64,000 nucleotides of DNA from positions 373,557-437,556 of the forward strand of contig CAVWXT010000002.1 of assembly GCA_963759115.1 (NCBI GenBank). Direction: 5' to 3'. Numbering within the stretch: position 1 is the stretch's first letter; each line of letters begins with the position of its first letter. The translations under genes and the position numbers were made by a program. Shown in pieces: positions 1,394 to 62,281 of the stretch. The notes beneath the pieces were generated by a model that was not told the origin of the DNA, did not search any database, and saw only the letters and a list, made by a program, of their open reading frames with translations. The stretch is from an uncultured Planctomycetaceae bacterium. GTDB taxonomy: Bacteria; Planctomycetota; Planctomycetia; Pirellulales; Thermoguttaceae.

Positions 1394-1765
1394 GCGGACA
1401 TTCGCTGTGCCGTGCGGGCCGACGTACTGTCGGCGACTGAACCCACGCCACGGGCCGCGGTCATGGGTGCGGCAAGATTTCTTGGCACTGGTTGTGAGGG
1501 CCAAAGGCCCTTCCGTTCGCCCAGCCCACGGGCAACGCCCTGGGGAACGGAGGCGATCCTGCCGATCGTGCGGCCCAACGGGCCAATCACTCGACGAATG
1601 ATTGGTCCGTTGGGCCGACAACATTGGTTCCATTGGGCCAATTCTCCAGGGCGTTGCCCTGGCCTGGGTGAACTGAGCCCCTTCGGGGCAGGCAGACCGA
1701 CGCCAAGAAATCTTGCCACGCCCGCAGTCATTGCAGTGGCGCCACTTCTGGGCTATTCTGGGATC

Positions 1766-4129
1766 ATGCAAGATCTCGAAGAAGCGGTTGTTCGTCTCGT
1801 CCACGCCCCCGGCTATCGGCCCGTCAAGCCGCGGCTGATCGCCCAACAGTTGAAGCTGTCGAAAGAAGAGACGGTCGAACTGAAACGGGCCGTTAAACGG
1901 CTCGTACACGCCGGGCGGCTCTGCTACGGCTCAAACCATCTGGTCATGCCCGTCACGGCCGCCAAGGGAAAAAGGGGACAGTCCCCGACCAACCTTCGGT
2001 CGGGCACAAAAGGGGACAGTCCCCTTTTTCCCAAGCCGCCGAAGAGCAACCGCCTGATGGGCGTGTTTCAGCGGGCGCAAAAGGGCTTCGGATTCGTCCG
2101 GCTCCGCGGCGAAGGCGTGGCTGCCGACGCCAAAGACATCTACATCCCCGCCGACCGCACCGGTGACGCTGCCACCGGCGACATGGTGTTGGTGGAGATG
2201 AAGAAACGCGGGCGCGGCGATCCCGGCCCGCGCGGCGAGATCGTCGAGGTGATCGAGCGGCAGACGCAGCAGTTCGTGGGCACGTATTTCGAGTCGGAAG
2301 GGGCGGCCTACGTGAAGATCGACGGCCCGCTGTTCGCCCGGCCGATCTACGTCGGCGATCCGGGGGCGAAGAACGCCCGGGCCGACGACAAAGTGGTGAT
2401 CGAGATGATCCGCTTCCCGTCGCCGCTGCACGACGGCGAGGGGGTGATCGCCGAGGTGCTCGGCCCGCGGGGCAAGCCGGGCGTCGACACGCTGTCGATC
2501 ATCCGCGAGTTCAACCTGCCCGACCGCTTCGCCGAAGACGCCCTGGCCGAGGCCCGCGGAGAAGCCGAGAAGTTCGACGAGTCGCTCGGCCCGCGGCAGG
2601 ACTTCACCGGTGAGACGATCGTCACCATCGATCCGGTCGACGCCCGCGACTTCGACGACGCGATCTCGCTGGAGCAGCTCGACAACGGCCACTGGCGGCT
2701 CGGGGTCCACATTGCCGACGTGTCGCATTTCATCCGCCCGAACACCGCACTAGACCGCGAGGCCCTGGAGCGGGCCACGAGCGTGTATCTGCCCGATCGC
2801 GTGCTGCCCATGCTGCCGGAGGTGATCTCCAACGGCCTGGCCAGCCTTCAGCCGGGCAAGGTCCGCTACACGAAGTCGGCCATCATGGAGTTCACCGCCG
2901 ACGGGCTGCGGGTGGCGACCGACCTCTACTCCGCGGCCATCCGCAGCAGCAAACGCCTCACCTACGAACAGGTCGACGGGTTTCTGCAAGACCGGGAGAC
3001 TTGGCGGCGCAAGCTCGGCATCAAGGTGGCCGACCTGTTGGGCCGCATGCACACCCTGGCCATGATCCTCCGCAAGCGGCGGCTGGCCAACGGGGCGCTG
3101 GAGTTGAGCATGCCCGAGGTCAAAGTGGAACTCGATAAGCAGGGGCGCGTGGCGGGGGCCCACGTCGTCGAGAACACCGAGAGCCACCAGATCATCGAGG
3201 AGTTCATGCTGGCCGCCAACGAGGCCGTGGCCGAAGCGCTTCGCGACCGCGGGCTGCACTTCCTCCGCCGCATCCACCAGGCGCCCAGCCCGCAAAAGCT
3301 CGCCGTGCTCACCGAGTTCATGACGGAGTTGGGCTACAAGACGGAGAGCCTGCAAAGCCGCTTCGCCCTGCAAAAGCTGTTGGACGCGGCCACCGGCCGG
3401 CCCGAACAACATGCCGTCCACTTCGCCGTGTTGCGGTCGCTGCAACGGGCGATCTACAGCCCGATGGAAGAAGGCCACTATGCCCTGGCCAGCGACTGCT
3501 ATTGCCATTTCACCTCGCCCATCCGCCGCTATCCCGACCTGACGGTACACCGGTTGGTCGACGCGATTCTGCGCAGAAAAGGGGACAGGCCCCATTTGCC
3601 GGAACGGCCCGAAGGGTGCTTCGCACAAATGGGGCCTGTCCCCTTTTCCGCAAAACTGCGGAACGACTACGAAGAGTTGGTCGTCCTCGGCCGGCACTGC
3701 TCCGACCGCGAGCAACGGGCCGAAGCGGCCGAACGCAACCTCACCAAGCTCAAGCTGCTGGCCTATCTGAGCGACCGCATCGGCGAGGAGATGGAGGCCG
3801 TGGTGACGGGCGTGGAGAGCTACGGCATCTTCGTCCAGGGGATCAAGCTGCCGGCCGAAGGACTCGTCCGCGTGGAGACCCTGCGCGACGATTTCTACCG
3901 TTTCGACCGCGCCTCGCACACGCTTTCCGGCCACCGCGCCGGCAACAGCTACCGGCTGGGCGACTTGCTGCGCGTCGCCGTGGCGCGGGTGGACCTCGAA
4001 CGCCGCGAGTTGGATTTCCGCGTGGTGGAACGGGAGAAGAGGAAAACGACTGTATCGACGAAGGTGGCGAAGAGCGGCGCCAAGGCGAAGAAGGAAGGAG
4101 GCCACAAACGGCCGAAACGCCGATCATGA
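1766..4129 (+). CDS. rnr: ribonuclease R (RNB-family 3'-5' exoribonuclease)
   Basis: Intact 788-aa ORF with an N-terminal HTH region (MQDLEEAVVRLVHAPGYRPVKP), cold-shock domain (KGFGFV), RNB catalytic core (IDPVDARDFDDAISLE) and a C-terminal S1/basic tail. Two in-frame palindromic-element insertions are noted separately. Confidence 0.92.
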   Translation: MQDLEEAVVRLVHAPGYRPVKPRLIAQQLKLSKEETVELKRAVKRLVHAGRLCYGSNHLVMPVTAAKGKRGQSPTNLRSGTKGDSPLFPKPPKSNRLMGVFQRAQKGFGFVRLRGEGVAADAKDIYIPADRTGDAATGDMVLVEMKKRGRGDPGPRGEIVEVIERQTQQFVGTYFESEGAAYVKIDGPLFARPIYVGDPGAKNARADDKVVIEMIRFPSPLHDGEGVIAEVLGPRGKPGVDTLSIIREFNLPDRFAEDALAEARGEAEKFDESLGPRQDFTGETIVTIDPVDARDFDDAISLEQLDNGHWRLGVHIADVSHFIRPNTALDREALERATSVYLPDRVLPMLPEVISNGLASLQPGKVRYTKSAIMEFTADGLRVATDLYSAAIRSSKRLTYEQVDGFLQDRETWRRKLGIKVADLLGRMHTLAMILRKRRLANGALELSMPEVKVELDKQGRVAGAHVVENTESHQIIEEFMLAANEAVAEALRDRGLHFLRRIHQAPSPQKLAVLTEFMTELGYKTESLQSRFALQKLLDAATGRPEQHAVHFAVLRSLQRAIYSPMEEGHYALASDCYCHFTSPIRRYPDLTVHRLVDAILRRKGDRPHLPERPEGCFAQMGPVPFSAKLRNDYEELVVLGRHCSDREQRAEAAERNLTKLKLLAYLSDRIGEEMEAVVTGVESYGIFVQGIKLPAEGLVRVETLRDDFYRFDRASHTLSGHRAGNSYRLGDLLRVAVARVDLERRELDFRVVEREKRKTTVSTKVAKSGAKAKKEGGHKRPKRRS
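1966..2032. repeat. GGGGACAG-family palindromic element (copy 1), in frame inside rnr
   Basis: aaaaaGGGGACaGTCCCC-gaccaaccttcggtc-gggcacAAAAGGGGACaGTCCCCTTTTt; each GGGGAC-a-GTCCCC unit is a perfect palindrome. It encodes the extra peptide KGKRGQSPTNLRSGTKGDSPLFPK between the HTH and cold-shock domains. Confidence 0.65.
3583..3657. repeat. GGGGACAG-family palindromic element (copy 2), in frame inside rnr
   Basis: The 22-bp inverted arms AAAAGGGGACAGGCCCCATTTG / CAAATGGGGCCTGTCCCCTTTT flank a 27-bp core. It encodes RRKGDRPHLPERPEGCFAQMGPVPFSAK in a surface loop after the RNB domain. Confidence 0.65.
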
Positions 4130-4226
4130 GATTTTCGACGGCGGTCTTGCTTGTCCTGGCGGCCAGAAGCTGCCGACTTCCAAAACTCTCTTGACTTTAT
4201 GTCGCATGAACACTATAAGTAGCACG

Positions 4227-5079
4227 ATGCTGCACGACGCTCTGCTTTCGGACAAGATCTGCGATCTCTTGGGCAAACCCTATAGCGCCGGCGAAGGGTA
4301 CGCTATTTATTGTGCTGATTGTCTGCGAGTCCTGCAAAACATGCCCGGCGACATCTTCTCCCTCACGGTTACTAGCCCACCATACAACATTGGAAAAGAA
4401 TACGAGAACCCGCTGCCTCTTGAAAAGTACCTGAGTTGGTGCGAGCAATGGATGCAAGAGGTCTATCGCGTCACGCGACCAGATGGAGCGTTCTGGCTCA
4501 ACGTCGGATACGTTGAAATTTCGGGGAGGGCGAAAGCGATTCCGCTGCCGTATCTGCTGTGGGATAGATCGCCGTTCTATCTGATTCAGGAAGTGGTGTG
4601 GAACTATGGTGCAGGAGTGGCTGCCAGCAAGTCTTTATCGCCCCGGAATGAGAAGCTCCTCTGGTACGTGAAGGACCCAGGGAACTACACATTCAATCTC
4701 GACCTCATTCGGGACCCGGAGGTGAAGTATCCTCTCCAAAAAAAGAACGGCAAACTGAGGTGCAACACAATCGGGAAGAACCCATCGGATGTATGGCAGG
4801 TGGCAAAGGTGACTTCGGGAGAAGACCGCGCCTCACCGGAGAGGACACCCCACCCTGCACAGTTTCCTCTTGATCTTGTGAATCGTGTGGTGCTCGGATT
4901 CTCAAATCCGGGCGAGTTGGTGCTGGACCCCTTTATGGGTTCCGGCACCGTAGCTGTGTCTTGCCTTCAATCCGGGCGGAGGTTTCTCTGGAATCGAGAT
5001 CAAACCCGCCTATTGTGAAATCGCGGCGAAACGAGTTGAGAGGTTTCTGGCAGACAAACGATCACGGCTCTTCGATTAA
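4227..5079 (+). CDS. DNA methyltransferase (beta-class N4-cytosine / N6-adenine family), M subunit of a type II R-M system; 1-bp frameshift near 4990
   Basis: Motif IV SPPY (VTSPPYNIGKEY) precedes motif I (LVLDPFMGSGTVAVSCLQSGRRF), which is the beta-class order. After GRRF the frame breaks; the -1 frame reads the expected GIEIKPAYCEIAAKRVERFLADKRSRLFD*. TTGACT-N17-TATAAG lies immediately upstream, with ATG 4227 at about +7, so the mRNA is probably leaderless. Confidence 0.75.
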
Positions 5080-5850
5080 CGAGGCGGTATTTCCGTGCAT
5101 TCGTCCAAGAACTTCTGATTGTTCGGCTTGATCCTGCGCAAGCGCCGGGAAGTTCTCCCTCAAAGCGAAGGAGGTCCCCAATTGTGTTAATGCCAAGCTG
5201 AGCGAGACGTTCCGACGTAAACGGCCCAACTCCATCCAACAGCAAAACAGGCGCATGTTGTCGATATGGGCCGGGGATCGGAATGAGCTTGTTATCGTAA
5301 ACCGCTTGTTTCAACCCGGCCATCTGGCCGGTGGGCGCTTCTTGAGGATCCCAGTCGGAAGCGTCAATCCAGCCGAATCGGATCAGGGTCATGGTTTGAC
5401 TGAAGAAATTGACCGTGATGTAGAACCCCGATTTCTCCTTCTTGGGGACAACATCGCTTCCTGACTTCTGGCCGTAGCTCCGATTGCCATATACCTTGAA
5501 GCCTGCTTGGCCAGACGTTTTGATTTCGATTGAGAACGTGGATCGGGTACGTAGACAATATCCTTATCCTCTTTCGATTGGTTCCCGCGCCACTGCGTGG
5601 GTGCGCGTTGCTCCAGTTCGCGGGCCAGCAAGACCTCGAAGAAGTAACCGACAATTGTCGCAGGAACCTTGAGGTCCGAGAGTTTCACGGAGATCGAGCC
5701 CGTTCCTACAGTGGATTGCCAGAGCGTAGCCCACGCCGTGGTCGATGCGTCCAGCAACTCGGTTGACTTGAGCGGGTGACTGTTGACAAGCTGCCGGGTA
5801 ATGCTGAGCCAAGACGATTCTGGCTTTCCCGAATAGGGGCTGGTTGTCAT
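5062..5850 (-). CDS. putative type II restriction endonuclease (PD-(D/E)xK candidate), frameshifted; boundaries approximate
   Basis: It lies immediately downstream of and in the same orientation as the C-protein gene, convergent with and overlapping the MTase 3' end. Joining the 5389..5850 and 5000..5392 frames gives ...KDIVYVPDPRS/TFSIEIKTSGQAGFKVYGN..., a VPD-x7-E-x-K motif. No other similarity is recognisable, as is typical for REases. Confidence 0.4.
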
Positions 5851-6071
5851 CTTCCCTCCGGCCCGCCGAACAGATCGCGTGGATGAACGCCGAGGGCTTC
5901 GGCGAGACGGATGATATTTTTGAGGGCAATGTTTCGTTCACCGCGTTCCACGCCACCCATGTACGTGCGGTGTATTCCAGCTTTGGCGGCGAGAGCTTCC
6001 TGGCTCAATCCTGTTTTTTCTCGCAAGGCGTGTACGCGATCACCGAATCGTTTCAATTGGGCGTCTTTCAT
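5847..6071 (-). CDS. controller (C) protein, XRE-family HTH transcriptional regulator of an R-M system
   Basis: 74 aa: MKDAQLKRFGDRVHALREKTGLSQEALAAKAGIHRTYMGGVERGERNIALKNIIRLAEALGV, a classic C-protein HTH. Its stop abuts the start of the REase candidate. Confidence 0.7.
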   Translation of the reverse strand: MKDAQLKRFGDRVHALREKTGLSQEALAAKAGIHRTYMGGVERGERNIALKNIIRLAEALGVHPRDLFGGPEGR

Positions 6072-6227
6072 CGAAGTGCAGTTTGAGTAATTGAACACAA
6101 TGAGTCTACACCCTATGAGTAGCACACGCGTCGGACGTTCGGATGTTCCTCGCCTTGGTCGTTGCCTTGCCCGCGAGCAGAGCGTCTGCTACTATCAGTG
6201 TGGAAGCGGATTGATGGGAGCTGACCG

Positions 6228-6461
6228 ATGAGCTTCGTGATTCAAGCCATCTATGAGAATGGCGTTCTAAGGCCATTGGAAAAGCTGGCCTTACGCGAAC
6301 GCCAGCATGTCCGACTTGAGGTCGAGACGAACGTCGCGTCAAGCGGCGACGGCCCGGCGCAGGATCGTGCCGATCTCCTTGAAGGTGTTCAGGCAGCGAC
6401 GGGCATCCTCGATCTGGCAGAACACTTCGACGACTACCGGTTCGGCCGCCGCAAGCGATGA
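6228..6461 (+). CDS. DUF104-family antitoxin (VapB-like partner of a PIN toxin)
   Basis: MSFVIQAIYENGVLRPLEKLALRERQHVRLEV matches the DUF104 signature (IxAIYENGVLKPLE). Its stop overlaps the next ATG in an ATGA junction. Confidence 0.6.
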   Translation: MSFVIQAIYENGVLRPLEKLALRERQHVRLEVETNVASSGDGPAQDRADLLEGVQAATGILDLAEHFDDYRFGRRKR

Positions 6462-6571
6462 AGCCCGTACCCTCTGATTCCAACAGTTCGTCTCCGTACC
6501 CTCCGCGCCACCGCAGTGCGATTCCCGTGTGTCTGTTCCCCCCCACTAGCCCCCTTTCCGCTGCCTGCTAA
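6458..6571 (+). pseudogene. possible remnant of a vapC (PIN) toxin gene
   Basis: A 37-aa ORF (MKPVPSDSNSS...) starts with ATGA overlap on the antitoxin stop, at the position where a PIN toxin N-terminus (MK..LDTNV) would be expected. It runs into a C-rich non-coding stretch. Confidence 0.2.
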
Positions 6572-6640
6572 AATGGCGTTCTACGCGGCGGACAAATCCG
6601 CCCGGCTTAACGGAACATTCGCAAGCAGGAAAGGTCGGCA

Positions 6641-7816
6641 ATGGACGCGCCGCTCTCGCGGACCCCTCTATATGATTGGCATATTTCCCACGGCGGCCGG
6701 ATGGTGGACTTCGCCGGCTGGGCCATGCCCGTCCAATACAACTCGATCATCGACGAGCACCGCACGATCCGCTCCGCGGTGGGCATGGCCGACATCTCGC
6801 ACATGGGCCGGCTCCGCTTCGAGGGGCCCGGCGCGGCCGTCTTCCTGGCTGAACTACTCACCCGCCGCGTGGCCGACATGGAGTTGGGCCAGATCCGCTA
6901 CTCGCTGGTGACCAACGACGAGGGGGGCATCCTCGACGACGTGCTGGTGGGCTACTACCACAATTCCCACGGCCAGCCGTTCTTCCTCGTGGTGGTCAAC
7001 GCCAGCAATCGCGCCAAGATCGTCGACTGGGTCCACGCCCATCTGCCCAAAGAGCGCGCCGAGCGGCCCGGCCACGAAGTGATTTGGGCCGACGTCAGCC
7101 GGCTCTGGGCCATGTTCGCCATTCAGGGCCCGCGATCCGTGGAACTGTTGCAGCCGCTTATTGACGACGACCTGAAGTCGATGCGTTACTATCGCGGGGC
7201 GCAAGTCGCGCTGCTGCACCCGGCCGCCCAACGCCAGGGCGGCATCATCAGTCGCACCGGCTACACCGGTGAGGACGGCTTCGAGTTGAGCGTCGGGGCC
7301 AGCATCGCGCCGGGCGTTTGGGAAGCGCTGATGGAACTGGGCCGGCCCTTGGGCGTCGTGCCCGCCGGACTCGGCGCCCGCGACACGCTGCGGCTGGAGG
7401 CCGGCATGCCGCTGTATGGCCATGAGTTGTCGGAGCAGATCAACCCGTTTCAGGCGGGCCTGGGTTTCGCCTGCCATTTGGTCGGCTACGACTTCCCCGG
7501 CCGCAACGCCCTGCTGCGGATACAGAACGAGCCGCAGCGATCGGTTCGCATCGGCTTGGAGATGGCGGGCAAGCGGGCCGCCCGCCAAGGCTGCCCGATC
7601 CTCGTCGGCGGCCAGCCCATCGGCGAGGTCACCAGCGGCAGCTATTCGCCCACGCTCGACCGGCCGATTGCGATGGGTTACGTCGCCGCCGAGTTCGCCC
7701 GGCCGGGCACGGAGTTTCAGATTGACATCCGCGGCCGCCTCGAGCCGGCCCGTCTTGTCGAGCTGCCCTTTTATGGCCGCAAGAAGGCCGCGAAGAGTGG
7801 TCATGGCCCAACATAG
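6641..7816 (+). CDS. gcvT: glycine cleavage system T protein (aminomethyltransferase)
   Basis: 391-aa intact ORF: MDAPLSRTPLYDWHISHGGRMVDFAGWAMPVQY... Confidence 0.92.
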   Translation: MDAPLSRTPLYDWHISHGGRMVDFAGWAMPVQYNSIIDEHRTIRSAVGMADISHMGRLRFEGPGAAVFLAELLTRRVADMELGQIRYSLVTNDEGGILDDVLVGYYHNSHGQPFFLVVVNASNRAKIVDWVHAHLPKERAERPGHEVIWADVSRLWAMFAIQGPRSVELLQPLIDDDLKSMRYYRGAQVALLHPAAQRQGGIISRTGYTGEDGFELSVGASIAPGVWEALMELGRPLGVVPAGLGARDTLRLEAGMPLYGHELSEQINPFQAGLGFACHLVGYDFPGRNALLRIQNEPQRSVRIGLEMAGKRAARQGCPILVGGQPIGEVTSGSYSPTLDRPIAMGYVAAEFARPGTEFQIDIRGRLEPARLVELPFYGRKKAAKSGHGPT

Positions 7817-12659: not shown

Positions 12660-14033
12660 TTTCGACCGCTTGTCGCAACAGCGCCGGCAAATCCGCGCCG
12701 GCGCAGAACGGAGCCAATGCCTCGGCCACTTCGGCCGGCGTGGCGTATCGCGATTCGGCGCGGGTCTTTGGCCAACATGCGATCCAGCACGGCCGCCAAG
12801 CCCGTCGGGAATCTCCGGGCAAAACTGGCGGATCGGCGGGATCGGCTCCTGGCGATGGGCCAGCATCTTGTCGAACGTGCCCTGGTACTCCGGCCCGCTG
12901 AACGGGGCCCGGCCGGAAAGCAGCTTGTAGAGCGTGGCCCCGAGGCTGTAGATGTCGGCGCGGATATCGACCGCCCGGCTGTCGGAGGCCTGCTCGGGGG
13001 CCATGTAGTCGGCCGTGCCCATCGCCTGGCCCGTGCCGGTCATATCGTCTTCGGGCGGCTCAAAGGCTGAAGGGGACAGTCCCATTTTTGCGGCGGCTCG
13101 GATCCGTTGGAGAAGCAACGTTGCTGGGCCGGCAAATTGGGACAGTCCCCCGTTGCGAATCGGGCCAGCCCCAGGTCGAGCAGCTTCACTTGGCCCTCGG
13201 GCGTGAGCATCAGGTTCGAGGCTTGAGTCGCGGTGGACCAGGCCGTGTTCGTGGGCGGCCTGCAGGCCCAGGGCCGCTTGCCGGGCCAGCTCGCAGGCGT
13301 CGGCCACGGGGATCGGGCCGGAAAGGGGACAGCCTTGTGCGCAGCACCCTCGGGTCGTTCCGGCAAATGGCGCTGTCCCCTTTTCCGGCCCAGCCGGCGG
13401 ACGATTTCCGCCAGGTCGAGCCCCTCGACGAACTCCATGACCAGCACCAGCCGGCCTTCGATTTCGCGGGCGTCGTAGGCGCGGACGATGTGGGGATGAT
13501 CGAGCCGGCCGATGGCCTTCATCTCCCGCTCGAAGCGGACGACCGCCCGCGGGTCGTCGGTCCGGCCGCGCGGCAGGACCTTCAGGGCGACGACCCGATC
13601 GAGCCGGTTGTGCAGGGCCTTGTAGACCGTGCCCATGCCGCCGCTGCCCAGCCGCTCGATCAAGCTGGTACTCGCCGAGTTGCTGGGGCAACGAGGGCTC
13701 GGAAGTGCCCGGCAACGTTTCGTCGCGGGGGGCGGCAGTGCCGCCGCCACTCCAACGCTGCGAATCGGCGGCCGCCTCGACTCCACCCAACGCCGCCTTC
13801 GCCCGGGCAACGGCCTGGCCGCACTCGGGCTCATCCAGAACGGGTCCGGCGCGATCGGCGCCGCGAAGCCGGGCGACCAGCGTGTCGTCGGCGTCGGCCA
13901 GCGTGGCCAACTCGGCCTGGCAATCCGGGCAGGATTCCAGGTGGCCGGCCAAGGAGTCGGAGGCGTCGTCGGGCAGCTTGCCGACGAGATAATCCATCAG
14001 TTGCTCGCGGCTCGGGCAGGTTGCGGTTGGCAT
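12660..14033 (-). CDS. Ser/Thr protein kinase with N-terminal anti-sigma-like zinc-finger domain; at least 5 frame changes plus repeat insertions; possibly a pseudogene
   Basis: The N-terminus MPTATCPSREQLMDYLVGKLPDDASDSLAGHLESCPDCQAEL is anti-sigma-factor-like. The kinase motifs LGSGGMGTVYKA, HEHGLVHRD, NLMLTPEGQVKLLDLGLARF, GTADYMAPEQ and LDRMLAKDP are spread over three frames. GGGGACAG elements sit at 13068..13153 and 13313..13372. Confidence 0.55.
13068..13153. repeat. GGGGACAG-family palindromic element inside the kinase gene
   Basis: GAAGGGGACAGTCCCATTTTTGC ... GCAAATTGGGACAGTCCCCC; the reading frame changes across it. Confidence 0.55.
13313..13372. repeat. GGGGACAG-family palindromic element inside the kinase gene
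   Basis: CCGGAAAGGGGACAGCC ... GGCGCTGTCCCCTTTTCCGG. On the coding strand it translates to GRKRGQRHLPERPEGAAHKAVPFPA, the same peptide family as rnr copy 2. Confidence 0.55.
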
Positions 14034-14996: not shown

Positions 14997-16427
14997 TCAC
15001 TCGCCCAACTGCGACTTTCGCCGCAAGAGGTGATGATAGTGTTGGGCGAAACGGTGGGCCTCGTCGCGGACGTATTGCAGCAGCCGCAGGGCATAACTGT
15101 GCCGGCTCAGACGCAACGGCTCGTCGGCCTCCGGCGTGAAGACCAGTTCTTCGCGCTTGGCCAAGGAAATCACGATCGTTCGGCCTTCCCGTGTGCCACT
15201 GCCGGCTTGCCCAGCAGTGTTCGTACGAGGACGGAATCCGGCGTCGCTTTCGGCACTGCCGGACAAGCCGGCAGCTGGCACGCCAGCGCCGCCAGCGCCG
15301 CGTTGAGTTGCCCCTGGCCGCCGTCGATCAACAGGATGTCGGGCGGCGTTTCGCCTTCCTGCCGGATGTGCTGGAACCGCCGGGCGACGGCCTCGTGGAT
15401 GCTGGCCACGTCGTCGGGCCCTGCCACGCTGCGAATCTTCATCCGCCTGTAGCCCGGCTTGAACGGCAGGCCGTCGATGAACTGCACCACGCTGGCCACC
15501 GTCTCCGTGCCGGCCAGTGTGGGCGATGTCGATGCCTTCGATCGTCCGCGGCCGCTTCTCCAGGTGCAGCACCTTCTTGCAGCCCGGCCAGCCCGCGCTT
15601 CGGGTCGATCGGGAAAGACCTCGGGCTGGACGTGCGTTTCCAGTTCGCCGCGGTCGTCGAGCGATTCGAGCATGTCGATTTCGTCGCGCAGCCGGCCGGC
15701 CTCCTCGAATCGCAGCTCCTTGGCCGCGGCGGCCATCTCCTCGCGCATCTCGCCGAGCAGCCGGTTCTTGCCGCCTTCGAGAAACCGCTGGAGGCGGTGG
15801 ATGTCTCTTGCGATATTCTTCCTTCGAGATTCGCAAATTGCACGGCGCCGTGCATTGGCCGATCGAGTGCAGCAGGCAGGGGCGGAACCACCGCCAGCGC
15901 TTGTCGCTCTCGTCGATATCCAGCGTGCAGGTGCGGAACTTGAAAATCTTCTGCAACACCTGGATCGCCCCGCGCAGGCCGCGGGGATTGGCGAACGGCC
16001 CGTAGAGCTTCGTGCCCCGCGCCTTCGGCTCGCGGGTGAAACGCACGCGGGGAAAATCCTCGTGCGTGAAAATCTCCAGGTAAGGAAACGTCTTGTCGTC
16101 GCGCAGGTCGCGGTTGAACTTCGGCAGGATGTCCTTGATCAGCCGGGCTTCCATCAGCAGGGCGTCGATTTCGCTCTCGGCGTCGAGATAGTCGATGTCG
16201 CGGATTTCCAGGACGAGCTTGGCGGTCCGCGGGTCTTCGGCGGCCGCCTTCAAGAAGTAGCTGCCCGCCCGGGCGCGGAGGTTCTTCGCCTTGCCCACGT
16301 AGATCACCCGGCCGGCGTCGTCCTTCATCAGGTAGACGCCGGGCGTCTGCGGGAAGGAGCGGACCTTCTCGGCAGCCAAGGAGTTGTCGGCGGGGGGAAG
16401 GGTTTCAGCCATCTCTTTCATTTTCAC
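14997..16427 (-). CDS. uvrC: excinuclease ABC subunit C (UvrC), several 1-bp frameshifts clustered at 15540-15600 plus about 15190 and about 15830
   Basis: GIY-YIG N-terminus (GVYLMKDDAGRVIYVGKAKNLRAR); the middle part (RLRDEIDMLESL..FPIDPKRGLAGLQKVLHLEKRPRTIEGIDIAHLAGTETVASVV) is spread over three frames; the C-terminal HhH (HSYALRLLQYVRDEAHRFAQ) is in the first frame again. Confidence 0.75.
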   Translation of the reverse strand: MKMKEMAETLPPADNSLAAEKVRSFPQTPGVYLMKDDAGRVIYVGKAKNLRARAGSYFLKAAAEDPRTAKLVLEIRDIDYLDAESEIDALLMEARLIKDILPKFNRDLRDDKTFPYLEIFTHEDFPRVRFTREPKARGTKLYGPFANPRGLRGAIQVLQKIFKFRTCTLDIDESDKRWRWFRPCLLHSIGQCTAPCNLRISKEEYRKRHPPPPAVSRRRQEPAARRDARGDGRRGQGAAIRGGRPAARRNRHARIARRPRRTGNARPARGLSRSTRSAGWPGCKKVLHLEKRPRTIEGIDIAHTGRHGDGGQRGAVHRRPAVQAGLQADEDSQRGRARRRGQHPRGRRPAVPAHPAGRRNAARHPVDRRRPGATQRGAGGAGVPAAGLSGSAESDAGFRPRTNTAGQAGSGTREGRTIVISLAKREELVFTPEADEPLRLSRHSYALRLLQYVRDEAHRFAQHYHHLLRRKSQLGE

Positions 16428-19454: not shown

Positions 19455-19560
19455 CACAAAGCCGCGACCGGTGGTCGCGTCAGAGGGATTAGGGATTAGG
19501 GATTAGGGATTGGCTTCGCTCTCTCCCCTCTCCCTCCGGGAGAGGGGCAGGGGGTGAGGG
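19454..19560. repeat. composite repeat cluster after groEL: GCGACCGGTGGTCGC hairpin, (GGGATTA)x4 heptamer array, and a family-E palindrome
   Basis: aaagccGCGACCGGTGGTCGCgtcaga / gggattagggattagggattagggattgg / cccctctccctccgggagaggggcagggggtgaggg. Confidence 0.6.
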
Positions 19561-20282
19561 TCGGTTGCGGCGGCGAGATGCCGCGACAGTTCGTTGGGGT
19601 GGTAGGTACAATGCCACCCCTCGCGGCCATACACAACATCACCTTGGATTTGCACCTTGAAACGCCCCGGGACTCCGGTCCCTGGGCGTTTTTCGCGCAA
19701 TTGAGTGAATCGGGAGTCGAAGCGGGGACGGGGGGGCGAAAGAGGACGCAGCTAATTTCCTTGTCCAACATCTCGCGTCACGCATCGTTGGTCATTCCTG
19801 AAAGAGCCTCTGGAGTCAAGGGCCTTCCGGTGAGTTGTTGGTGGTTGGATTTTGTTTTTGGGCACGTACATTCCCCGACAAAGCCACAAAGGGGCTTTTC
19901 TTGGTAGTTTGAATTGGTTGGGGGGATCGATGGCAGAGTTCAGTTGTCACGGTCATATGCGAGGTTGTTCGCGCCGTTCTTTTCCGTGCGGCGGCACCCC
20001 TACCCATTCCTTCGTGAATCCGTCTGCCGCTAGCGGCAGCCGTTCAGACCCCAACGGGCCTGACACCGAATATGCTTTGCGACCGTCTCGCAGAACACCA
20101 GCCGTCCCAATCAACAAAACGCTCGACAACAAGGCCGAGTCCATTGACCAACTCGGACTGACCAAGTGTCCGCGAGGGCCTCTCCTCGCTGCGAGGAGGG
20201 CCGATGCAACCGCTACTCTCCCTTCTGGCCTCCCTTGTTTTCTGTAACAGGTTCCCCGCCCACCTCTTCCTTCCTATAATTC

Positions 20283-21650
20283 CGCTGCTTGGTGAAGCGG
20301 AGTCGGGCTCTGCGGGGACGCAACCCGACAAGGAATAGCCAAGTCAAGGTGCGCCAAGAGCGTGCGGGGCCTCTGACGAGGGCTTCTCGCCAGGGGCCGT
20401 TTTCTTACCCCTTGGACACCTTGCCATCCCTCCGAAAATCCGCTGCCGCAAAGCACCATCGGGCGATCCTTTCGTGTTCAGCCGGATACGGCCATTCCCT
20501 CGCGTTGCTCTTGCCGGAGCCCGCCGACGGCATACGCCTCGTGGTACTTGACCATGTGCCAGATGATCGTCGCCAGTCGACGCATCACCGCCACGCGACC
20601 GATTTTCGCTCCCCGACGCTTCTTGATCCTCTGATACCAGGCCCTCATGCGCACATCCCGCCGCAGGACGTGCAGCGTGATCTGGGCCAGGATGAAGCGC
20701 ACTGTGGCACTGCCTTGCTTGGTGATCGAGCCCAGCCGGTCGGTCGCCTCGCCGGAATTCCGGCATCCGGGCGTCAGGCCCCAATAGCTGGCCAGACTCT
20801 TCGATCGCGGGAACCGATCAATGTCGCCGATCCGCGAAGCCAAGGCCAGGCTGCCGTAGGCCCCGGCACCCGGAATGCTGGCGATGACCGCCGCCGCCAC
20901 GTTCTCCGCCTGCCGCCGGCGAATCTCCGCCCCCATCTGCTCGATCTGCTCGTCGCACAGCTTCCACTCCCCCAAGAGTTGATCCATCTCCCGCCGGTCG
21001 ATCGGACTGAAGCACACCTGGGTCAGCCATTTCTTCCCCGCGATGGTGTCAATCCCCTTGGTGGGACACTCCTGCTCCAGATTGTGTTTTCGCAACAAAC
21101 GCTTGACGCGGTTGATGATTCGGGTGCGGGACTGCCCCAGACGCTGACGCCGGGCGGTGAGTTGGCGGTCCTGCGCGTCTTGCTCCGTGGGCGGCACCAC
21201 CCGGCGAATGCCTTGCACCTTCGTGCCCGCCAGCAACCGATGACGATTGACCCAGAGGATCTCGCCCAGGGCATTGGCGTCGCGGCGATCGGTCTTCTTC
21301 TTCGACTGCTTCTCGGGCTGAATGAGGATCGTCTCACGGCAGCCATATCCCGGCAACAGTTTCAACAGCCAGTCGTTAAAGCCGCAGACCTCCAAAATGG
21401 CGATGAAGCCGCCTTCCGGTTGGCTCTTCTGTCGCAACTCGGTGAAGAAGGCATGCACCCGTTTCCACTCCGTGCTCACCTGCCGTTTGTCGATCACGTC
21501 ACCGGTCTCCTGGCGAACATTCACGGTCAACTGCTTGCGGTGCTGGTCGATGGAAAGGTATAACATCTCTCGGTCCTCCTGTTTGTACTTTTGGTGGGTT
21601 CACCACGAACCACACCGTGAATAGTACCGGGAGGACCGCTCTTTCATAGA
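20283..21650 (-). mobile_element. IS110-family insertion sequence, copy 1 (boundaries approximate)
   Basis: Transposase gene plus 5' hairpin (GTGGTTCgtggtGAACCAC) upstream of the ATG. The 52-bp terminal block TGGTGAAGCGGAGTCGGGCTCTGCGGGGACGCAACCCGACAAGGAATAGCCA at 20290..20341 is identical to the block at 23321..23372. Confidence 0.7.
20478..21566 (-). CDS. IS110-family transposase (DEDD recombinase)
   Basis: 362 aa: MLYLSIDQHRKQLTVNVRQETGDVI... RDANALGEIL ... GAGAYGSLALASRIGDIDRFP...YWGLTPGCRNSGE, typical IS110/IS1111 N-terminal RuvC-like plus C-terminal domain. Confidence 0.85.
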   Translation of the reverse strand: MLYLSIDQHRKQLTVNVRQETGDVIDKRQVSTEWKRVHAFFTELRQKSQPEGGFIAILEVCGFNDWLLKLLPGYGCRETILIQPEKQSKKKTDRRDANALGEILWVNRHRLLAGTKVQGIRRVVPPTEQDAQDRQLTARRQRLGQSRTRIINRVKRLLRKHNLEQECPTKGIDTIAGKKWLTQVCFSPIDRREMDQLLGEWKLCDEQIEQMGAEIRRRQAENVAAAVIASIPGAGAYGSLALASRIGDIDRFPRSKSLASYWGLTPGCRNSGEATDRLGSITKQGSATVRFILAQITLHVLRRDVRMRAWYQRIKKRRGAKIGRVAVMRRLATIIWHMVKYHEAYAVGGLRQEQREGMAVSG

Positions 21651-23229: not shown

Positions 23230-23314
23230 CCGCCGGCGTGTCAAGGCCCAGGCCAACGGATTTCTTGGGAAACTGCTAATTCGCTTGTCTCGCTGTTATA
23301 ATGTGTGTGCCTGG

Positions 23315-24800
23315 TGAAGCGGAGTCGGGCTCTGCGGGGACGCAACCCGACAAGGAATAGCCAGGTTAGGGCGGGTGAATGACCCGTGATGCCCTGGCGG
23401 TATCCACTGCCAGGGCAGTTTTGTCTCACCGACTCATTCATTTGCTCTACTATGCCTCCGAAAATCCGACCCTGCCAAACACCAGCACACCCGCCGCAAT
23501 TGGCAACGGCTTGTCACTCGTCGTCGCGCACCTAGTAGTCACCCATTCGTGCCGTCCGAGCCGAAGCCCGTCGCATATTGTATTGTTCACCGGTCACAGT
23601 GCCCAATCAGGAGGACAGTGCAGACTTGCGTCTCACGAGAACCCCTTTGCGGGCCAGCCGCGACCGTACTCGTGCGCGATATCGTGTTGCTCTCTACGCC
23701 GCCTGGTGGGCGTGCTCACGCTGCCAACGACGCAGCCGCTTCCAACATATCTCCGCCAGTTTGCGGGCCACCGCCACCCGTGCAATCTTTGCGCCGGATC
23801 GCTTCCGCACCCGCGTGTAAAAGTTCTTCAAGGCCGCGTCCTCGCGGATCGCCTTGATGGCCGCCTCCACGAGAATCCATCGCAACCACGTCGACCCTTG
23901 CCGTGTAATCGAACCGCGGTAGCAGTGTCCGCCCGACTGATGCACACGGCAGGTCAGCCCGGCGTACGCGCCGACCTGTTTTGCCATGCGGAAACGCTCC
24001 ACTTCGCCGATTTCCGCCACGATCAACAACGCCGAGTACAGGCCGATGCCGTGAATCTCGGTCAAGGCTTCCGCTTGCGGAAAAGCCGCCGACATCCGCG
24101 CGATGTGCCGGTCGATGATCGTCGCTTGCCGTCCGAAATGTTTCAATCGCGCCAGTAGTTCGTCGCGGACCAGATTCTCGATCCAGCCGAAGTCTTGCCC
24201 ACGAAACCAAGCTAAGCCGCGGACGCCGAAAGGAACCCGATAAGGGGCTTGCCGATTTTGCCTGGCCAACAAGGCCCGCAAGTGGATTTTCGCCTCGGCC
24301 AACTCGCGGCCCAGACGTGCCCGGCGGCGTGTCAGCTCGCGGAGTTGCTGGTACGGCTCCGGCGGAATGTAGGCCAGCGGAATCTGGTTGATCCGCAACA
24401 GGTTCGCCAACAATTGGGCGTCCAGCTTGTCCGTTTTGGTGCGTTGTTGTACCATAGCCCGCAGACGAAACGGATGGGCCAATAAGATCGTACCGTACGG
24501 TCGGAGCAGGTCGTACAGCCAGCGATACGTTGCGCTGGCCTCGATGACCGCCCGAAAGGATCCCAACGCCTGGACGACGTTCACGATGCTGGCGGTGTCT
24601 TCACAGCGAACGGTGACGGGCTTGATAACTTCGCCCGTGTCGTTCACGGCGGCAATCACCACGGTCTCACGGTGCAAATCGATACCCACGTGCCACATGA
24701 ATAGGTCTCCTTGTTTGGTGGAGGAAAGATGGATTCGTTACTGCTTCCATCCTACTCCACCAGCAAGGGGCCTATCACGCGGCGGTTATAGTATCAGGAG
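23315..24800 (-). mobile_element. IS110-family insertion sequence, copy 2 (divergent transposase, identical 52-bp end block)
   Basis: TATAAT then 9 nt then the conserved 52-bp block at 23321..23372; a longer 3' non-coding region with the cctccgaaaatccg motif shared with copy 1; hairpins upstream of the transposase ATG. Confidence 0.7.
23694..24698 (-). CDS. IS110-family transposase
   Basis: 334 aa: MWHVGIDLHRETVVIAAVNDTGEVI...KTDKLDAQLLANLL...IHGIGLYSALLIVAEIGEVERF... Confidence 0.85.
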   Translation of the reverse strand: MWHVGIDLHRETVVIAAVNDTGEVIKPVTVRCEDTASIVNVVQALGSFRAVIEASATYRWLYDLLRPYGTILLAHPFRLRAMVQQRTKTDKLDAQLLANLLRINQIPLAYIPPEPYQQLRELTRRRARLGRELAEAKIHLRALLARQNRQAPYRVPFGVRGLAWFRGQDFGWIENLVRDELLARLKHFGRQATIIDRHIARMSAAFPQAEALTEIHGIGLYSALLIVAEIGEVERFRMAKQVGAYAGLTCRVHQSGGHCYRGSITRQGSTWLRWILVEAAIKAIREDAALKNFYTRVRKRSGAKIARVAVARKLAEICWKRLRRWQREHAHQAA

Positions 24801-24975: not shown

Positions 24976-24985
24976 CACAGCCACA

Positions 24986-25048
24986 GAAAAGGGGACATCA
25001 CTGATTACGGGACGTGATGTTCAGACATATCAGTGATGTCCCCTTTTG
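24986..25048. repeat. GGGGACA-family palindromic element (intergenic copy)
   Basis: AAAAGGGGACATCACTGAT ... ATCAGTGATGTCCCCTTTT. Confidence 0.6.
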
Positions 25049-25182
25049 TCTCGCCCGACGGGGGGACCGAACTGTTTCCAATTCTTGGGAGAACGCCATT
25101 GCCGCTACAGAGGAGTCGCGGCCCTGTGCTGGCGTGCGCGTCCTTACTGGACTGCCCGCACGGAGTATAATCGTATACAGGA

Positions 25183-30749: not shown

Positions 30750-30788
30750 CCCAATTCCCAATCTCAAATCCCTAATCCCCAATCCCTC
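30750..30788. repeat. CCCAAT/CCCTAAT heptamer array after the DUF1080 gene
   Basis: cccaattcccaatctcaaatccctaatccccaatccctc. Confidence 0.5.
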
Positions 30789-31004
30789 TTCGTCGCACAC
30801 GGAACCTCCGCCCCATTGTAGGCAATTAGCCCCCCCATCATAATGGAGGAGCAGGCCGGACATCGTAGAACGGAAGTCATTCCGTTCGTTTTTCGGGTGG
30901 GTCCGTTCTTCTTTGCAGGACCAAATAGGTTTCGTCCTATACTTTCCAAGATGGAGCGAATTACCTACTAGTGTCCAGGCGTTCCGCGTTGAGGAGGTGC
31001 GATC

Positions 31005-46896: not shown

Positions 46897-49800
46897 TCAC
46901 TTCCGCTGCTCGCCGGCGACGCCCTTGGTGTACTCGCGGAACTGCTCGGCGAAATCCGGCGGCGGGGGCGACTGGCCGCCATCGTGGAGATTCTGAAGCT
47001 TGTCGCGTTGCACTTCGCCCAGGGCCAGTCCCGTGCCGCGGGGGCGGAGGCCGAGGCTCTTCAGCGCGTCGTTGAACTGCCTTCTCGCGGCGTCGCCTAC
47101 GGGCCCCTTCTGCGCCGCGGATTGCCTCATCTTCTCCCAGTGTTCGAGGAACTTTCGCGCGTCTTCCTTGGTCCATCCGAGTCGTTCCAACAGCGCGGGC
47201 TTCTCCTTGGCCAGTTGATCGCGGAGGTGCTCCAGGGCCAACTCGGTCTGCTGGCGGCTGTACTCGCCATTTGCGTCATCGGCCGCGTCGTCGACGGGCT
47301 CCGGCGGCGGTGACGCCTGGGGGCGTTCGCGGGCCTTGCTGCCAGGCGTCGGATTGCCCGTGCCGCGGGCGGCCGGGCCCTCGGAGGTCTGCTGGCCCGG
47401 CGTGCCGCCATTGGCCGGCTTCTCTTGCGGCGCCGCCCTCCGCGGAGTCGTCTTGCGACGACGGTTTCTCGGCGGCTTCTTTGCCGTCGGCCTGTTTCTT
47501 CTCGCCGGTTCCGCCGCCCTTCCCGGCGGGCGTTTTCGCCGTGCTGCCGGTGGGCTGTTTCGAAGCGGCTTTGTCGCCGGCCTTGCTGCCGATTTCGCCT
47601 TGGCCCGGTTCATCGGCCTTTGAGCCGCCTTGGTCGGCAGGGGTCTGCGTGCCGGGGCCGCCGATGCCCTTCTGATTGGTCTGTTGACCGCCGCCCTCCT
47701 GGCCCCCGCCGGAGCGGTCGCCGGCGGTGTCGCCCCGCGAATCCGACTGATTCTTGCTCGTGCTGGGCGACTGAGGTTGCTCGCCTTTCCGCTCGCCCGG
47801 CGCCGAGCCCGACTCGCCGGGCTTCTTCTCACGCGGCTGGTTGTCTCCCTGCGGCATTGGAGCGGCGGCATTATCGCCGGTCTTCTGGCCGGCGCCGGGC
47901 GATTGCTTGGCGATGGGCTGTTGTTCGCCCGGCTTCTTATCGCTGGGTGCCTGATTGTCGGCGGGCTGCTCTTGCTTCTGCCCATCCGCCTTCGAGCCTG
48001 AGTTCTCCGCACCAGCCTTTTCCGCGCCAGCCTTCTCAGCACCGGCCTTCTCAGCACTCGCCTTCTGATCGCCGCCAGCCTTTTGATCGCCGCCGGCCTT
48101 CTGATCGCCGCCAGACTTCTGATCGCCGCCGGCCTTCTGATCGCCGCCAGACTTCTGATCGCCGCCGGCCTTCTGATCGCCACCAGACTTCTGATCGCCA
48201 CCAGACTTCTGATCGCCACCAGACTTCTGATCGCCACCAGACTTCTGATCGCCGCCAGACTTCTGATCGCCGCCAGACTTCTGATCGCCACCAGACTTCT
48301 GATCGCCGCCAGACTTCTGATCGCCACCCGCCTTCTGATCGCCACCCGCCTTCTGATCGCCACCCGCCTTCTGATCGCCACCCGCCTTCTGATCGCCACC
48401 GGCCTTCTGATCGCCGCCAGCCTTCTGATCGCCGCCGGACTTCTGATCGCCACCAGCCTTTTGATCTCCGGACTTCTGATCCCCCGCCTTCTGATCGCCA
48501 GACTTATCGGCACCCGACGGCGGTTGGTTGCCCTGCTGGTTGTCGGAGGTGGATTGCTCGGTCTTCGACTGCTTTTGCTGTTCCTGTTGGCGATCCTTGA
48601 TGATTTCCTGCATGGCGTCGCCGTCGTTGACGCCCGGCTCGATGCGCTCGTTGGGCTTCTCCGACGGTTCATTGCCCTGTTGTCCGCCGGACGTTTGTTC
48701 GGGACCTTGTTGCTTGCCCTTGTCTTGGCCCGATTTGCCAGACTCCGACTTGCCGCCGTCCTGGCCGGACTTGGCGGAATCCGATTGGCCGCCATTCTTC
48801 CCGGCGTTTTGGCCGCCCTGGGAGGAATCGGACTGTCCCTTGGTCCCACCCTTGCCAGGTTCCTCTTGGCGCTGCTGGTCCGGTTGGCCCTCTTTGGGCG
48901 GTTGCTCCTCGGGGGGCTGCTGCCTGTTCGCTAAAATGTCTTTCGGCCGTTCCTGCGATGGTCGCTCCGGGCTAGCCTGTTCGTTCGGCGGTTGTCCCTT
49001 GTTGGGCTGTGCCTGATCGCCCTGCGCTCCCTCGGGCGTCTTCTTTGGTTGCCGAGGGCCATCGGAAACAACCACGGTGATCCACTGCCTTTCGGTGGCG
49101 GAATGGCCCGCCGTTGGCTCCTTGTTGTCATCCGCCTCGGCCCAATACGGCACGCGGTCGCCGGCCTTCAGCCCCAACTTGGCAGGTTCCAACGTGTACG
49201 CCGCTGCGAATTCACCGGGCCACGCCTTCTCCGGTTTCTTCTTGTCCAACAGCGGGGTATTGAGCACGCTCCGGCCGTCGCGTTCGGCCCGCAAGGTCAC
49301 GCGCCGCAACGCAAAATCCGGGTCCTCTGCCCGCACGCCGATGGTGAGCTTGCCATTTTCCGGCACCTGCACCTCTGCCTTCTGCGGCTCGGTCAGTCGC
49401 ACGTCCGGCGGCAAGTCGCGGATCACGTCGATGTGGTAGCGGATCGGGTGGGTATTGTCGCGGCCGTGGGTGTCGGTGAAGCGAAGCTGGTACGAATCGT
49501 AGGCGGCGCCGGCGGCGTCCTTGGCACTCGCCCGCAAAGTGATGCGGCCGATGGCCGTGGCGCCGTCAACGGTCATTCCCAGGCCGCGGCGGCCGGTGCA
49601 ACCGACGTCGATCTCCGCCGTGCCGGGTTTGATGTTGGTGTTGGCGGTCGCATAAAGCGTGACTTCGGTCCCTTCGATCGCCCGCAAATCGCCCTGCCGT
49701 TGGACCGTTTGGTCGGCGATGCCCGTGTAAGCCGGGTAGCGGTACGAAACCTTGTCGACCACGATGGCGGGCGCGATCTGCGCATCGATGCGGTAACGGC

Positions 49801-51684: not shown

Positions 51685-52193
51685 GGCTATGCATGGTGAT
51701 GGAAGCGGAAATACTGCCTGGAGCAAATCTCATGCCCGAAGCTGCCCTGCCGACCATCTCACACCCCGCCGGCCGGTGCAAGCCGCGCCGCCAGGACCTT
51801 CGGCCGGGCGAAAGACTCTGCGACCACTGCACGGCTAAGTGCTGCCGCTACTTTGCCTTGCCCATCGACGAGCCCAAGGATTGGCAGGACTTCGATTATA
51901 TCCGCTGGTACCTGTTGCACGAGCAGGCGGCCGTGTTCGTCGAAGAGGATTGCTGGTACCTCTTGGTGCAGAACGGCTGCAAGCATCTCCGCGACGACCA
52001 CCTCTGCGACATCTATGAGACCCGGCCGCAAATTTGCCGCGACTACACCACCCGCAACTGCGAATACGAAGACGACTGGGTCTACGACAAGCTTTGGGAG
52101 ACCCCGGAACAGGTCGAGGAATATGCCGAGGCCGTGCTCGGCCCGCGCGAAGGAGAGAACGCACGTAGCGCGAAACCGCCAGCGGCTCTCTAA
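51669..52193 (+). CDS. YkgJ/UPF0153-family Fe-S/zinc cluster protein (CxxCxxCC); start uncertain
   Basis: CDHCTAKCCRYF ... CKHLRDDHLCDIYETRPQICRDY. Confidence 0.55.
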   Translation: MPRLLRLCMVMEAEILPGANLMPEAALPTISHPAGRCKPRRQDLRPGERLCDHCTAKCCRYFALPIDEPKDWQDFDYIRWYLLHEQAAVFVEEDCWYLLVQNGCKHLRDDHLCDIYETRPQICRDYTTRNCEYEDDWVYDKLWETPEQVEEYAEAVLGPREGENARSAKPPAAL

Positions 52194-52234
52194 TCCCTAA
52201 CCCCCAATCTCTAATCCCAAATCCCCAATCCCCC
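52191..52234. repeat. CCCTAAT/CCCAAT heptamer array between ykgJ and hisS
   Basis: taatccctaacccccaatctctaatcccaaatccccaatccccc. Confidence 0.5.
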
Positions 52235-52241
52235 GTCACCC

Positions 52242-55777: not shown

Positions 55778-57069
<1,292 letters not shown>

Positions 57070-57073
<4 letters not shown>

Positions 57074-62112: not shown

Positions 62113-62215
62113 TGTGACGCCTCCGTTTCGCGTGGTTCGCCCGTATCTTGGGCGATCCGACTGCGAATGTCAACATGCGGGGTTCTCGCCGCAGGGCCAA
62201 TGAGTTCTTCGATGT

Positions 62216-62278
62216 GGGAGGCGACTCCAGTCGCCGATTGTCCGAAATCAGCCGCAAATCGGCGACTGGAGCCGCCTC
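62216..62278. repeat. family-G palindromic repeat, copy 2 (GGAGGCGACTCCAGTCGCCGA ... CGGCGACTGGAGCCGCCTCC)
   Basis: The hairpin ends 3 nt before the group II intron 5' end. Confidence 0.6.
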
Positions 62279-62281
62279 CTA

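Follow-up and report, generated by a model that had tools for sequence, protein, structure and literature searches.

The window analysed here is a 64,000-nucleotide stretch of contig CAVWXT010000002.1 from an uncultured Planctomycetaceae bacterium, and the element in question is a cassette of 1.9 kb with a low content of guanine and cytosine (GC), located at 4190-6124 between the RNase R gene rnr and a DUF104 gene. Judged from its sequence, this locus appears to be a horizontally acquired type II restriction-modification (R-M) cassette of the ScaI family, with a minimal unit of about 4190-6124. The explanation that best accounts for all observations combines an acquired ScaI-family cassette, a C.AhdI-like controller, a circuit of the Esp1396I type acting on two promoters, and single-nucleotide indels that are likely consensus errors; we give it a probability of about 0.85. 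Wiring of the Esp1396I kind is already known, and what is new is one more C-controlled R-M locus of the ScaI family. The analysis covers gene families, conserved operators, promoter geometry and gene order, while binding by the controller and the effects of binding are deduced by homology.

Three genes make up the cassette (Table 1): a methyltransferase (MTase) gene (M), an endonuclease gene (R), and a controller gene (C). C is placed directly upstream of R in the same orientation, its TGA stop sharing the tetranucleotide ATGA (5850-5847) with the start ATG of R, and M is convergent with R. After repair of the indels described below, the stops of R (5078-5080) and M (5079-5081) overlap in a TTAA (5078-5081), which is likewise shared by the two stops in an intact homologous locus (L001). 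Co-oriented C and R with a convergent M were found in about 50 homologous loci of Planctomycetota and Proteobacteria, and a C homologue lies just upstream of R, co-oriented with it, in approximately 45 related loci. Cassettes of this type are also found on small Escherichia coli plasmids, as in the 4.5 kb ColE1-type NZ_CP104531.1 (L073), where a helix-turn-helix (HTH) gene, a ScaI family endonuclease gene and a convergent MTase gene occupy positions 1029-2834. The region upstream of M on this plasmid holds in addition a small extra open reading frame (ORF; 2667-2834). The first-pass annotation of this DNA had proposed a type II R-M locus under C control, in which C is followed by a co-oriented R and M is convergent, and this core reading holds, as layout, protein families and operators all agree with it.

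The repaired R product is 258 amino acids (aa) long and covers positions 1-191 of the 192 in the RE_ScaI profile. Altogether 595 database proteins match it (E ≤ 0.001), the best being 88% identical, and the best match in a scan of species-representative genomes reached 79%. Several of the matches, in metagenome-assembled genomes of Gemmataceae, Pirellulales and Planctomycetaceae, are named ScaI family restriction endonuclease. A search of solved structures with the R sequence revealed no relative. We also inspected an AlphaFold model of the 88%-identical intact homologue (P0001; mean predicted local distance difference test 87.9, predicted template modelling score 0.85), which displays the PD-(D/E)XK fold of restriction enzymes and resembles blunt cutters. 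Residues E72, D97 and E109 are invariant and K111 occurs in at least 90% of R sequences; all four are present in R of the window. The last ~ 60 residues match helix-hairpin-helix regions of a Y-family polymerase, Rev1 and RAD51C, and form a helix-hairpin-helix-like domain that is extra in the planctomycete clade; the R homologue of the E. coli plasmid, 199 aa long, is without this tail. The PF09569 match and the fold of the modelled homologue confirm an earlier suggestion that this minus-strand ORF encodes a PD-(D/E)xK nuclease. The type II reading is further sustained by the kinship of the controller with C.AhdI and by a layout that recurs, together with the architecture of both promoters, in dozens of loci.

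In the MTase, TSPPY (motif IV) is N-terminal to DPFMGSGT (motif I), the order that defines the beta class. The repaired protein has 283 aa, and its homologues, up to 89% identical, are mostly of the same length. The SPPY motif is typical of N4-cytosine MTases. Solved relatives of M are M.RsrI, which forms N6-methyladenine, and M.PvuII, which forms N4-methylcytosine (m4C), and M.ScaI is entered among cytosine-N4 methyltransferases (PMC8557920). We predict M to be an N4-cytosine MTase. With ScaI of Streptomyces caespitosus (AGT^ACT) the locus has in common an R that fits the whole PF09569 profile and an M with SPPY, a likeness of family profile and motif. On the basis of family membership, the SPPY motif and structural likeness to blunt cutters, the enzyme pair probably recognises a ScaI-like palindrome that is cut blunt and protected by m4C. 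No AGTACT site is present within the R-M locus.

Among proteins of solved structure, the 74-aa product of C is most closely related to C.AhdI (1y7y, E = 1.5e-18), C.BclI (1.6e-12) and C.Esp1396I (1e-6), and the gene is best interpreted as a C.AhdI-like R-M controller. That an HTH gene of the controller type directly precedes R had been noted before, and both the HTH_3 match and C.AhdI as closest solved relative speak for it. A search of a literature library found no description of a controller gene for ScaI. It could be argued that this gene is an antitoxin-like or prophage-type XRE repressor positioned beside an R-M pair by chance, and that the repeats upstream of it are an autoregulatory operator that plays no part in the timing of R and M expression. 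The top NCBIfam matches are indeed generic XRE/antitoxin subfamilies (HipB/Y4mF-type), all below cut-offs, and homologues of C proteins are known outside R-M systems (PMC2632904). We nevertheless consider a chance association extremely improbable: the three closest solved proteins are bona fide controllers, the gene is fixed upstream of R with the ATGA overlap in ~ 45 loci of varied taxonomy and flanks, it is preceded by a double-box operator of the PvuII/AhdI type at the canonical distance from its ATG, and a matching, co-varying box is found on the promoter of the partner MTase.

In its full form, the operator of the C/R promoter reads TGCTACTCATAGGG-TGT-AGACTCATTGTGTTCA (6123-6092, minus strand) and includes a -35-like TAGACT. 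Two direct repeats upstream of C had been put forward in the first-pass annotation as C-box candidates. The repeats are real, and correspond to the OL and OR halves of a conserved C-box of the PvuII/AhdI type, but they are located on the minus strand at 6108-6120 (ACTCATAGGGTGT) and 6095-6105 (ACTCATTGTGT), so that the position of ~ 6078-6105 given for them was about 15 nt off. Alignment of 18 distinct loci with unrelated upstream flanks (A3) shows an invariant TACT.AT....TGT.GAC...T......CA. More distant loci carry the classical form of the C-box, for example ACTCAAAGTCTGTAGACGAATAGTC, and the C-box of the E. coli plasmid, likewise classical, is ACTCATAGTCTGTAGACCCAAAGTCT. In most loci, 17-18 nt separate the C-box from the ATG, a spacing also described for leaderless C genes by Sorokin et al. 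(PMC2632904). The promoter itself can be written as TAGACT-17-CAAACT, followed after 8 nt by the ATG of C, and a hexamer of the form nAnnnT occupies the -10 position in most loci of the same alignment. This geometry mirrors that of the mapped AhdI promoter PahdICR, which is leaderless and has the structure TGGACT-18-TGTAAT (PMC2275141), and the C message is a candidate leaderless one.

The sequence TTGACT-N17-TATAAG, proposed previously as the promoter in front of the MTase ATG at 4227, is present as stated, and its -35 hexamer, its spacing and the ATG that follows are conserved in 13 loci. In an alignment of 13 distinct M promoters (A4), the 12 nt that follow TTGAC vary and ACTAT.AGTA is invariant. 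The -10 hexamer and the ATG of M are 7 nt apart in most of these loci; in three, the distance is 5-8 nt. A feature that had escaped the first-pass annotation is a single C-box on this promoter (OM in Table 1), which covers the -10 hexamer (4214-4219) and ends 3 nt before the ATG of M. The minus-strand segment GTGCTACTTATAGTGT (4225-4210) shares 14 of its 16 nt with the OL box. Between lineages, the half-site of this box changes in step with that of the C-promoter box: the two share GCTACG in L008, AATACT in L024 and GTTACT in L031. Furthermore, GCTACTNNNAGKGT is found at three sites in the window, where 0.02 would be expected, and each of them falls within this locus. The presence of this box would make the locus Esp1396I-like rather than PvuII-like.

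Comparative data also support a leaderless MTase message, as predicted from the position of the promoter. According to the opposite interpretation, translation of M begins at 4206, on an ATG that is in frame (MNTISST-MLHD...), from a leadered mRNA with its start further upstream, and TTGACT/TATAAG is not the M promoter. This ATG is in frame and present in the five closest loci, and some gene callers give products of 290 aa. However, in the distant L021, L040, L028 and L024 it is replaced by GTG or absent, whereas the ATG that follows the -10 hexamer is found in all 13 loci, and the majority of database homologues start at the equivalent of MLHD and have a length of 283 aa. The conserved letters of MNTISS are explained at the DNA level by the palindromic C-box together with the -10 hexamer, and TTGAC is invariant at a fixed 17 nt, while the spacer between TTGAC and the box varies in sequence. 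A start at 4206 is therefore very unlikely, and we retain the start at 4227.

Layout and operators were compared with those of known R-M systems. As in Esp1396I (PMC2691842), C and R are convergent with M, the CR promoter has a double C-box, a single one lies over the core promoter of M, and of these three boxes that of M shows the highest symmetry. In Esp1396I a single controller activates and represses CR and represses M, the behaviour that we infer for this locus from its sequence. The two systems differ in their endonucleases, which are unrelated in family and specificity, and in their transcripts: those of Esp1396I have leaders (27 nt for CR and 20 nt for M; PMC2691842), whereas the start codons in the window are 7-8 nt after the -10 hexamers. 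For C of the window, C.AhdI is also a better match (E = 1.5e-18) than C.Esp1396I (1e-6). With AhdI (PDB 1y7y; PMC2275141) the locus shares convergent CR and M, a -35 hexamer inside the C-box (TGGACT in AhdI, TAGACT in the window), and a weak -10 at 17-18 nt downstream; the C mRNA of AhdI is leaderless. The AhdI system differs in having M and S subunits and in controlling its M promoter not by C but through methylation of an AhdI site; here, a C-box is found on the M promoter instead. PvuII (PMC2175313, PMC2997769), the prototype of the double C-box class, has C and R frames that overlap and a C mRNA without a leader, but its M is divergent and is affected through promoter overlap, with no separate C-box of its own. 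Of the layout types to which the locus had been likened, PvuII and Esp1396I, only the latter fits, on account of the convergent M and the C-box on the M promoter.

Combining these features, a regulatory circuit can be proposed. M would be transcribed first, from a strong, near-consensus promoter of the sigma-70 type with a start on or next to the ATG, giving a leaderless mRNA; with such a promoter, methylation would begin as soon as the cassette enters a cell. The C-R promoter is weak and placed for a leaderless message, and C protein would therefore build up slowly. Dimers of C would then bind the most symmetric box (ACT-TAT-AGT) over the -10 hexamer and start point of M and lower MTase synthesis. 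Repression of this kind, of a convergent M promoter through a single site, has been demonstrated experimentally for C.Esp1396I (PMC2691842). Binding of C to OL would activate C and R, with translation of R coupled to that of C through the ATGA overlap, and at a high level C would also fill OR, covering the -35 hexamer and shutting off the C-R operon. M and R meet at their overlapping stops, with no terminator between them.

If the circuit is correct, the solution known from Esp1396I, in which one controller acts on CR and on a convergent M promoter, has been kept across a large and widespread enzyme family, and is combined here with apparently leaderless M and C messages. The homologous loci also offer natural operator variants for work on C-protein specificity, and the locus gains a correct annotation in Planctomycetota, a phylum in which regulation of R-M systems has hardly been studied.

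Horizontal acquisition of the cassette is indicated by its composition and by the limits of its homology. GC content is ~ 0.54 over roughly 4150-6400 and ~ 0.65 in the flanks (range 0.63-0.70), and homology with locus L072, whose flanks differ from those of the window, is confined to 4190-6124. Flanks of other homologous loci are unrelated as well. The closest relative, L071, has the context rnr-M-R-C-DUF104 in common with the window at ~ 87% nucleotide identity, and its collinearity with the window stops at 6378, within the DUF104 gene. In the lineage of the window, the cassette adjoined rnr already before the split from L071.

Indels in M and R were located by alignment with four intact homologous loci. 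A 1-bp frameshift in each of the two genes had been reported in the first reading of this DNA; those at ~ 4988 in M and ~ 5540 in R were found again, but R has a second deletion at ~ 5145, which makes three in all. Homologues of R end in ...FLDECTExPxR, and the window encodes that ending in another frame. M and R are convergent, as described before, but the overlap of about 80 bp ascribed to them is not genuine: the 82 bp shared by M and the raw ORF 5000-5392 are an artefact of the R frameshift at ~ 5145.

Whether the indels are errors or signs of decay was assessed on the remainder of the window. A hidden Markov model (HMM) of codon usage revealed many frame switches on the same strand. When the segments were spliced, Pfam recognised a SufS-like aminotransferase across three junctions (Aminotran_5, 1-371 of 371, E = 1.8e-140), and Pfam domains also run across frame junctions in SufU/NifU_N, the UvrC RNase H domain and an aldo-keto reductase. 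Frameshifts in these genes are clustered, with three in sufS, one in sufU, two to three in uvrC and one in the aldo-keto reductase gene. Two HlyD-type adaptors (one frameshift each) and a Ser/Thr kinase (at least two) look broken by eye. Such clustering in housekeeping genes suggests a noisy consensus. Contigs of the closest relatives bear names such as contig_1534 and contig_110593_np1212, which we take to be typical of long-read assemblies. L071 has two frameshifts in R, at positions other than those in the window, and an intact M. Nei-Gojobori ratios of non-synonymous to synonymous substitutions (dN/dS) between the window and L071 are 0.17, 0.24 and 0.18 for M, R and C, respectively, with 0.18 for the flanking rnr, and indicate purifying selection on all three cassette genes. 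In view of the housekeeping frameshifts, the different frameshift sites in L071 and these dN/dS values, the three indels in M and R are more likely to be errors in the consensus of a noisy assembly, probably made from long reads, than inactivating mutations. Of the two options that had been left open, an inactive system or an erroneous sequence, the second is thus better supported.

The competing explanation is that of a decaying R-M system, in which M and R are pseudogenes by real frameshifts and C survives, perhaps regulating the DUF104 gene through a third C-box. It would explain why M and R have been struck by three independent indels of 1 nt next to an intact C, why R is broken in L071 too, and why a C-box is found over a promoter-like site ahead of DUF104; in addition, neither the CCCGG-CGC deletion nor the M insertion, with its TCT to TCTCT context, is a simple homopolymer error. 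We regard decay as unlikely, because sufS, sufU, uvrC and other genes of the window are frameshifted alike, which makes the assembly unreliable at the single-base level, because L071 is frameshifted elsewhere and keeps its M intact, and because M and R have been under purifying selection since divergence from L071. E72, D97, E109, K111, SPPY and FMGSG are all intact. Loss of M beside an active R would be lethal, and in a stepwise decay R would be expected to break first; the order of events is not distinguishable here. The frameshifts were rejected as proof of decay after the frame HMM, the Pfam searches on spliced housekeeping genes and the dN/dS estimates. Conversely, the argument that long intact ORFs exclude sequencing error does not hold, as housekeeping genes are frameshifted too. 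In this assembly, frameshifts can be read as pseudogenes only with the reads at hand.

Several observations weigh against the explanation given at the outset. The consensus promoter scan did not call the M promoter, whose TATAAG ends in G and not in the usual T; the promoter is called because of its comparative conservation and not from the scan. In the E. coli plasmid relative, the C-box is present and no box is obvious on the M promoter, hence dual control is not universal in the family. AGTACT has one site in the window against ~ 7.5 expected, and many other palindromes that contain TA are also rare; avoidance of AGTACT, considered as evidence of specificity, was dropped for the reason that these are equally rare. 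Three indels fall within 1.6 kb, compared with a window average of about one per 4-5 kb, and a clear homopolymer change (CCC to CC) is seen in only one of the three. Finally, every step of the proposed regulation is drawn from motif conservation and from the examples of AhdI and Esp1396I.

A third C-box, in addition to those of the C/R and M promoters, is found upstream of the DUF104 gene. When 4203-4256, the stretch with the M promoter box and M codons 4-10, is reverse-complemented, it aligns with the segment around the third box (6166-6208), which is degenerate and lacks 11 nt that include the ATG of M. L071, the sole relative to share the context of the window, carries this segment too, and the remaining 70 loci lack it. 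The box overlaps a promoter-like site, TTGCCC-17-TACTAT, 27 nt upstream of the DUF104 ATG. The inverted segment could have been left behind by an older cassette of opposite orientation, or it may function as an operator. A functional role of the third box, either in control of DUF104 through TTGCCC-17-TACTAT or in distal modulation of the C/R promoter, is a candidate that we hold to be rather improbable. If true, an R-M controller would extend its regulon to a host gene or to another mobile gene, and the inverted relic of an M promoter would record the way in which one such cassette inserts into, or takes the place of, another.

The DUF104 gene does not belong to the minimal R-M cassette, and it is shared with L071 only over its first ~ 50 codons. 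A DUF104 antitoxin with a decayed PIN partner had been described at 6228-6571. DUF104 was recovered (PF01954), but the PIN partner was not: neither the 37-aa ORF 6458-6571 nor an overlapping ORF of 131 aa has a Pfam match at E values up to 10, and no PIN gene is present in L071 either. The defence-islet character attributed to this region is likewise unsupported. The gap between DUF104 and gcvT is only 179 nt. A glycine riboswitch or other RNA considered for 6462-6640, ahead of gcvT, was discarded, as there was no Rfam match and folding was no better than that of shuffled sequences (z = 0.11).

Table 1. Positions of the R-M genes, their operators and promoters, indels and neighbouring features in the window
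Feature	Position	Strand	Details
rnr (RNase R)	1412-4129		ORF ahead of the cassette
-35 hexamer of MTase promoter	4191-4196	+	TTGACT; TTGAC invariant in 13 distinct M promoters
Single C-box at MTase promoter (OM)	4207-4224	-	reads TGCTACTTATAGTGTTCA; core GCTACTTATAGTGT at 4210-4223
-10 hexamer of MTase promoter	4214-4219	+	TATAAG; 17-nt spacer; 7 nt before ATG 4227
MTase gene (M)	4227-5081	+	PF01555 N6_N4_Mtase, E = 1.7e-54
Indel in M	~4988		1-nt insertion, TTTCT[C]TGGAATC
ScaI-family endonuclease gene (R)	5850-5078	-	PF09569, E = 1.1e-56
Indel in R	~5145		1-nt deletion, CCCGG-CGC
Indel in R	~5540		1-nt deletion, GATCC-ACG; between catalytic D97 and E109-x-K111
Controller gene (C)	6071-5847	-	74 aa, intact; HTH_3, E = 2.6e-15
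-10-like hexamer of C/R promoter	6080-6085	-	CAAACT, weak; 17 nt downstream of -35-like TAGACT (6108-6103)
C-box of C/R promoter	6092-6123	-	OL GCTACTCATAGGGT (6123-6110), TGT spacer, OR AGACTCATTGTGTTCA (6107-6092)
Third C-box	6188-6201	+	GCTACTATCAGTGT; 64 nt beyond C/R C-box
AF2212-like/DUF104 gene	6228-6461	+	PF01954, E = 2.1e-12, residues 1-35
gcvT	6641-7816		beyond DUF104 gene
Frameshift regions	55788-57494, 15270-16425, ~44933, ~10821, ~11910, 13160-13662		

Several repeated sequences were recorded elsewhere in the window. A palindromic family (AAAAGGGGACAG[G/T]CCCC...) is represented at 3573-3651 (inside rnr), 2004-2040, 13064-13100, 13347-13393 (inside the kinase gene) and 24980-25054. 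Its arms at 3573/3626 are 26 nt long and 96% complementary. Some copies are within coding regions, in frame, as peptide inserts of the KRGQ...PF type. In appearance the repeat resembles a small element of the miniature inverted-repeat transposable element or repetitive extragenic palindrome kind. Two 75-nt copies (20275-20349 and 23297-23371), 88% identical, start with TATAAT and contain a GC-rich hairpin, GAGTCGGGCTCTGCGGGGACGCAACCCGAC; situated in regions without coding signal, they may represent a small RNA or a promoter element that has been duplicated. A 7-nt unit (GGGATTA / CCCTAAT-like) forms short runs in intergenic positions after genes, at 19482-19513, 30750-30791 and 52175-52237. 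At 47972-48547, about 30 tandem 18-nt units in a minus-strand ORF of 1169 aa encode GDQK(S/A)G hexapeptides. Near the end of the window, a match to the Rfam group II intron family RF00029 (62987-63067, plus strand; 56.5 bits, E = 2e-08, above the gathering score) sits in a stretch without clear coding signal (62034-63392).

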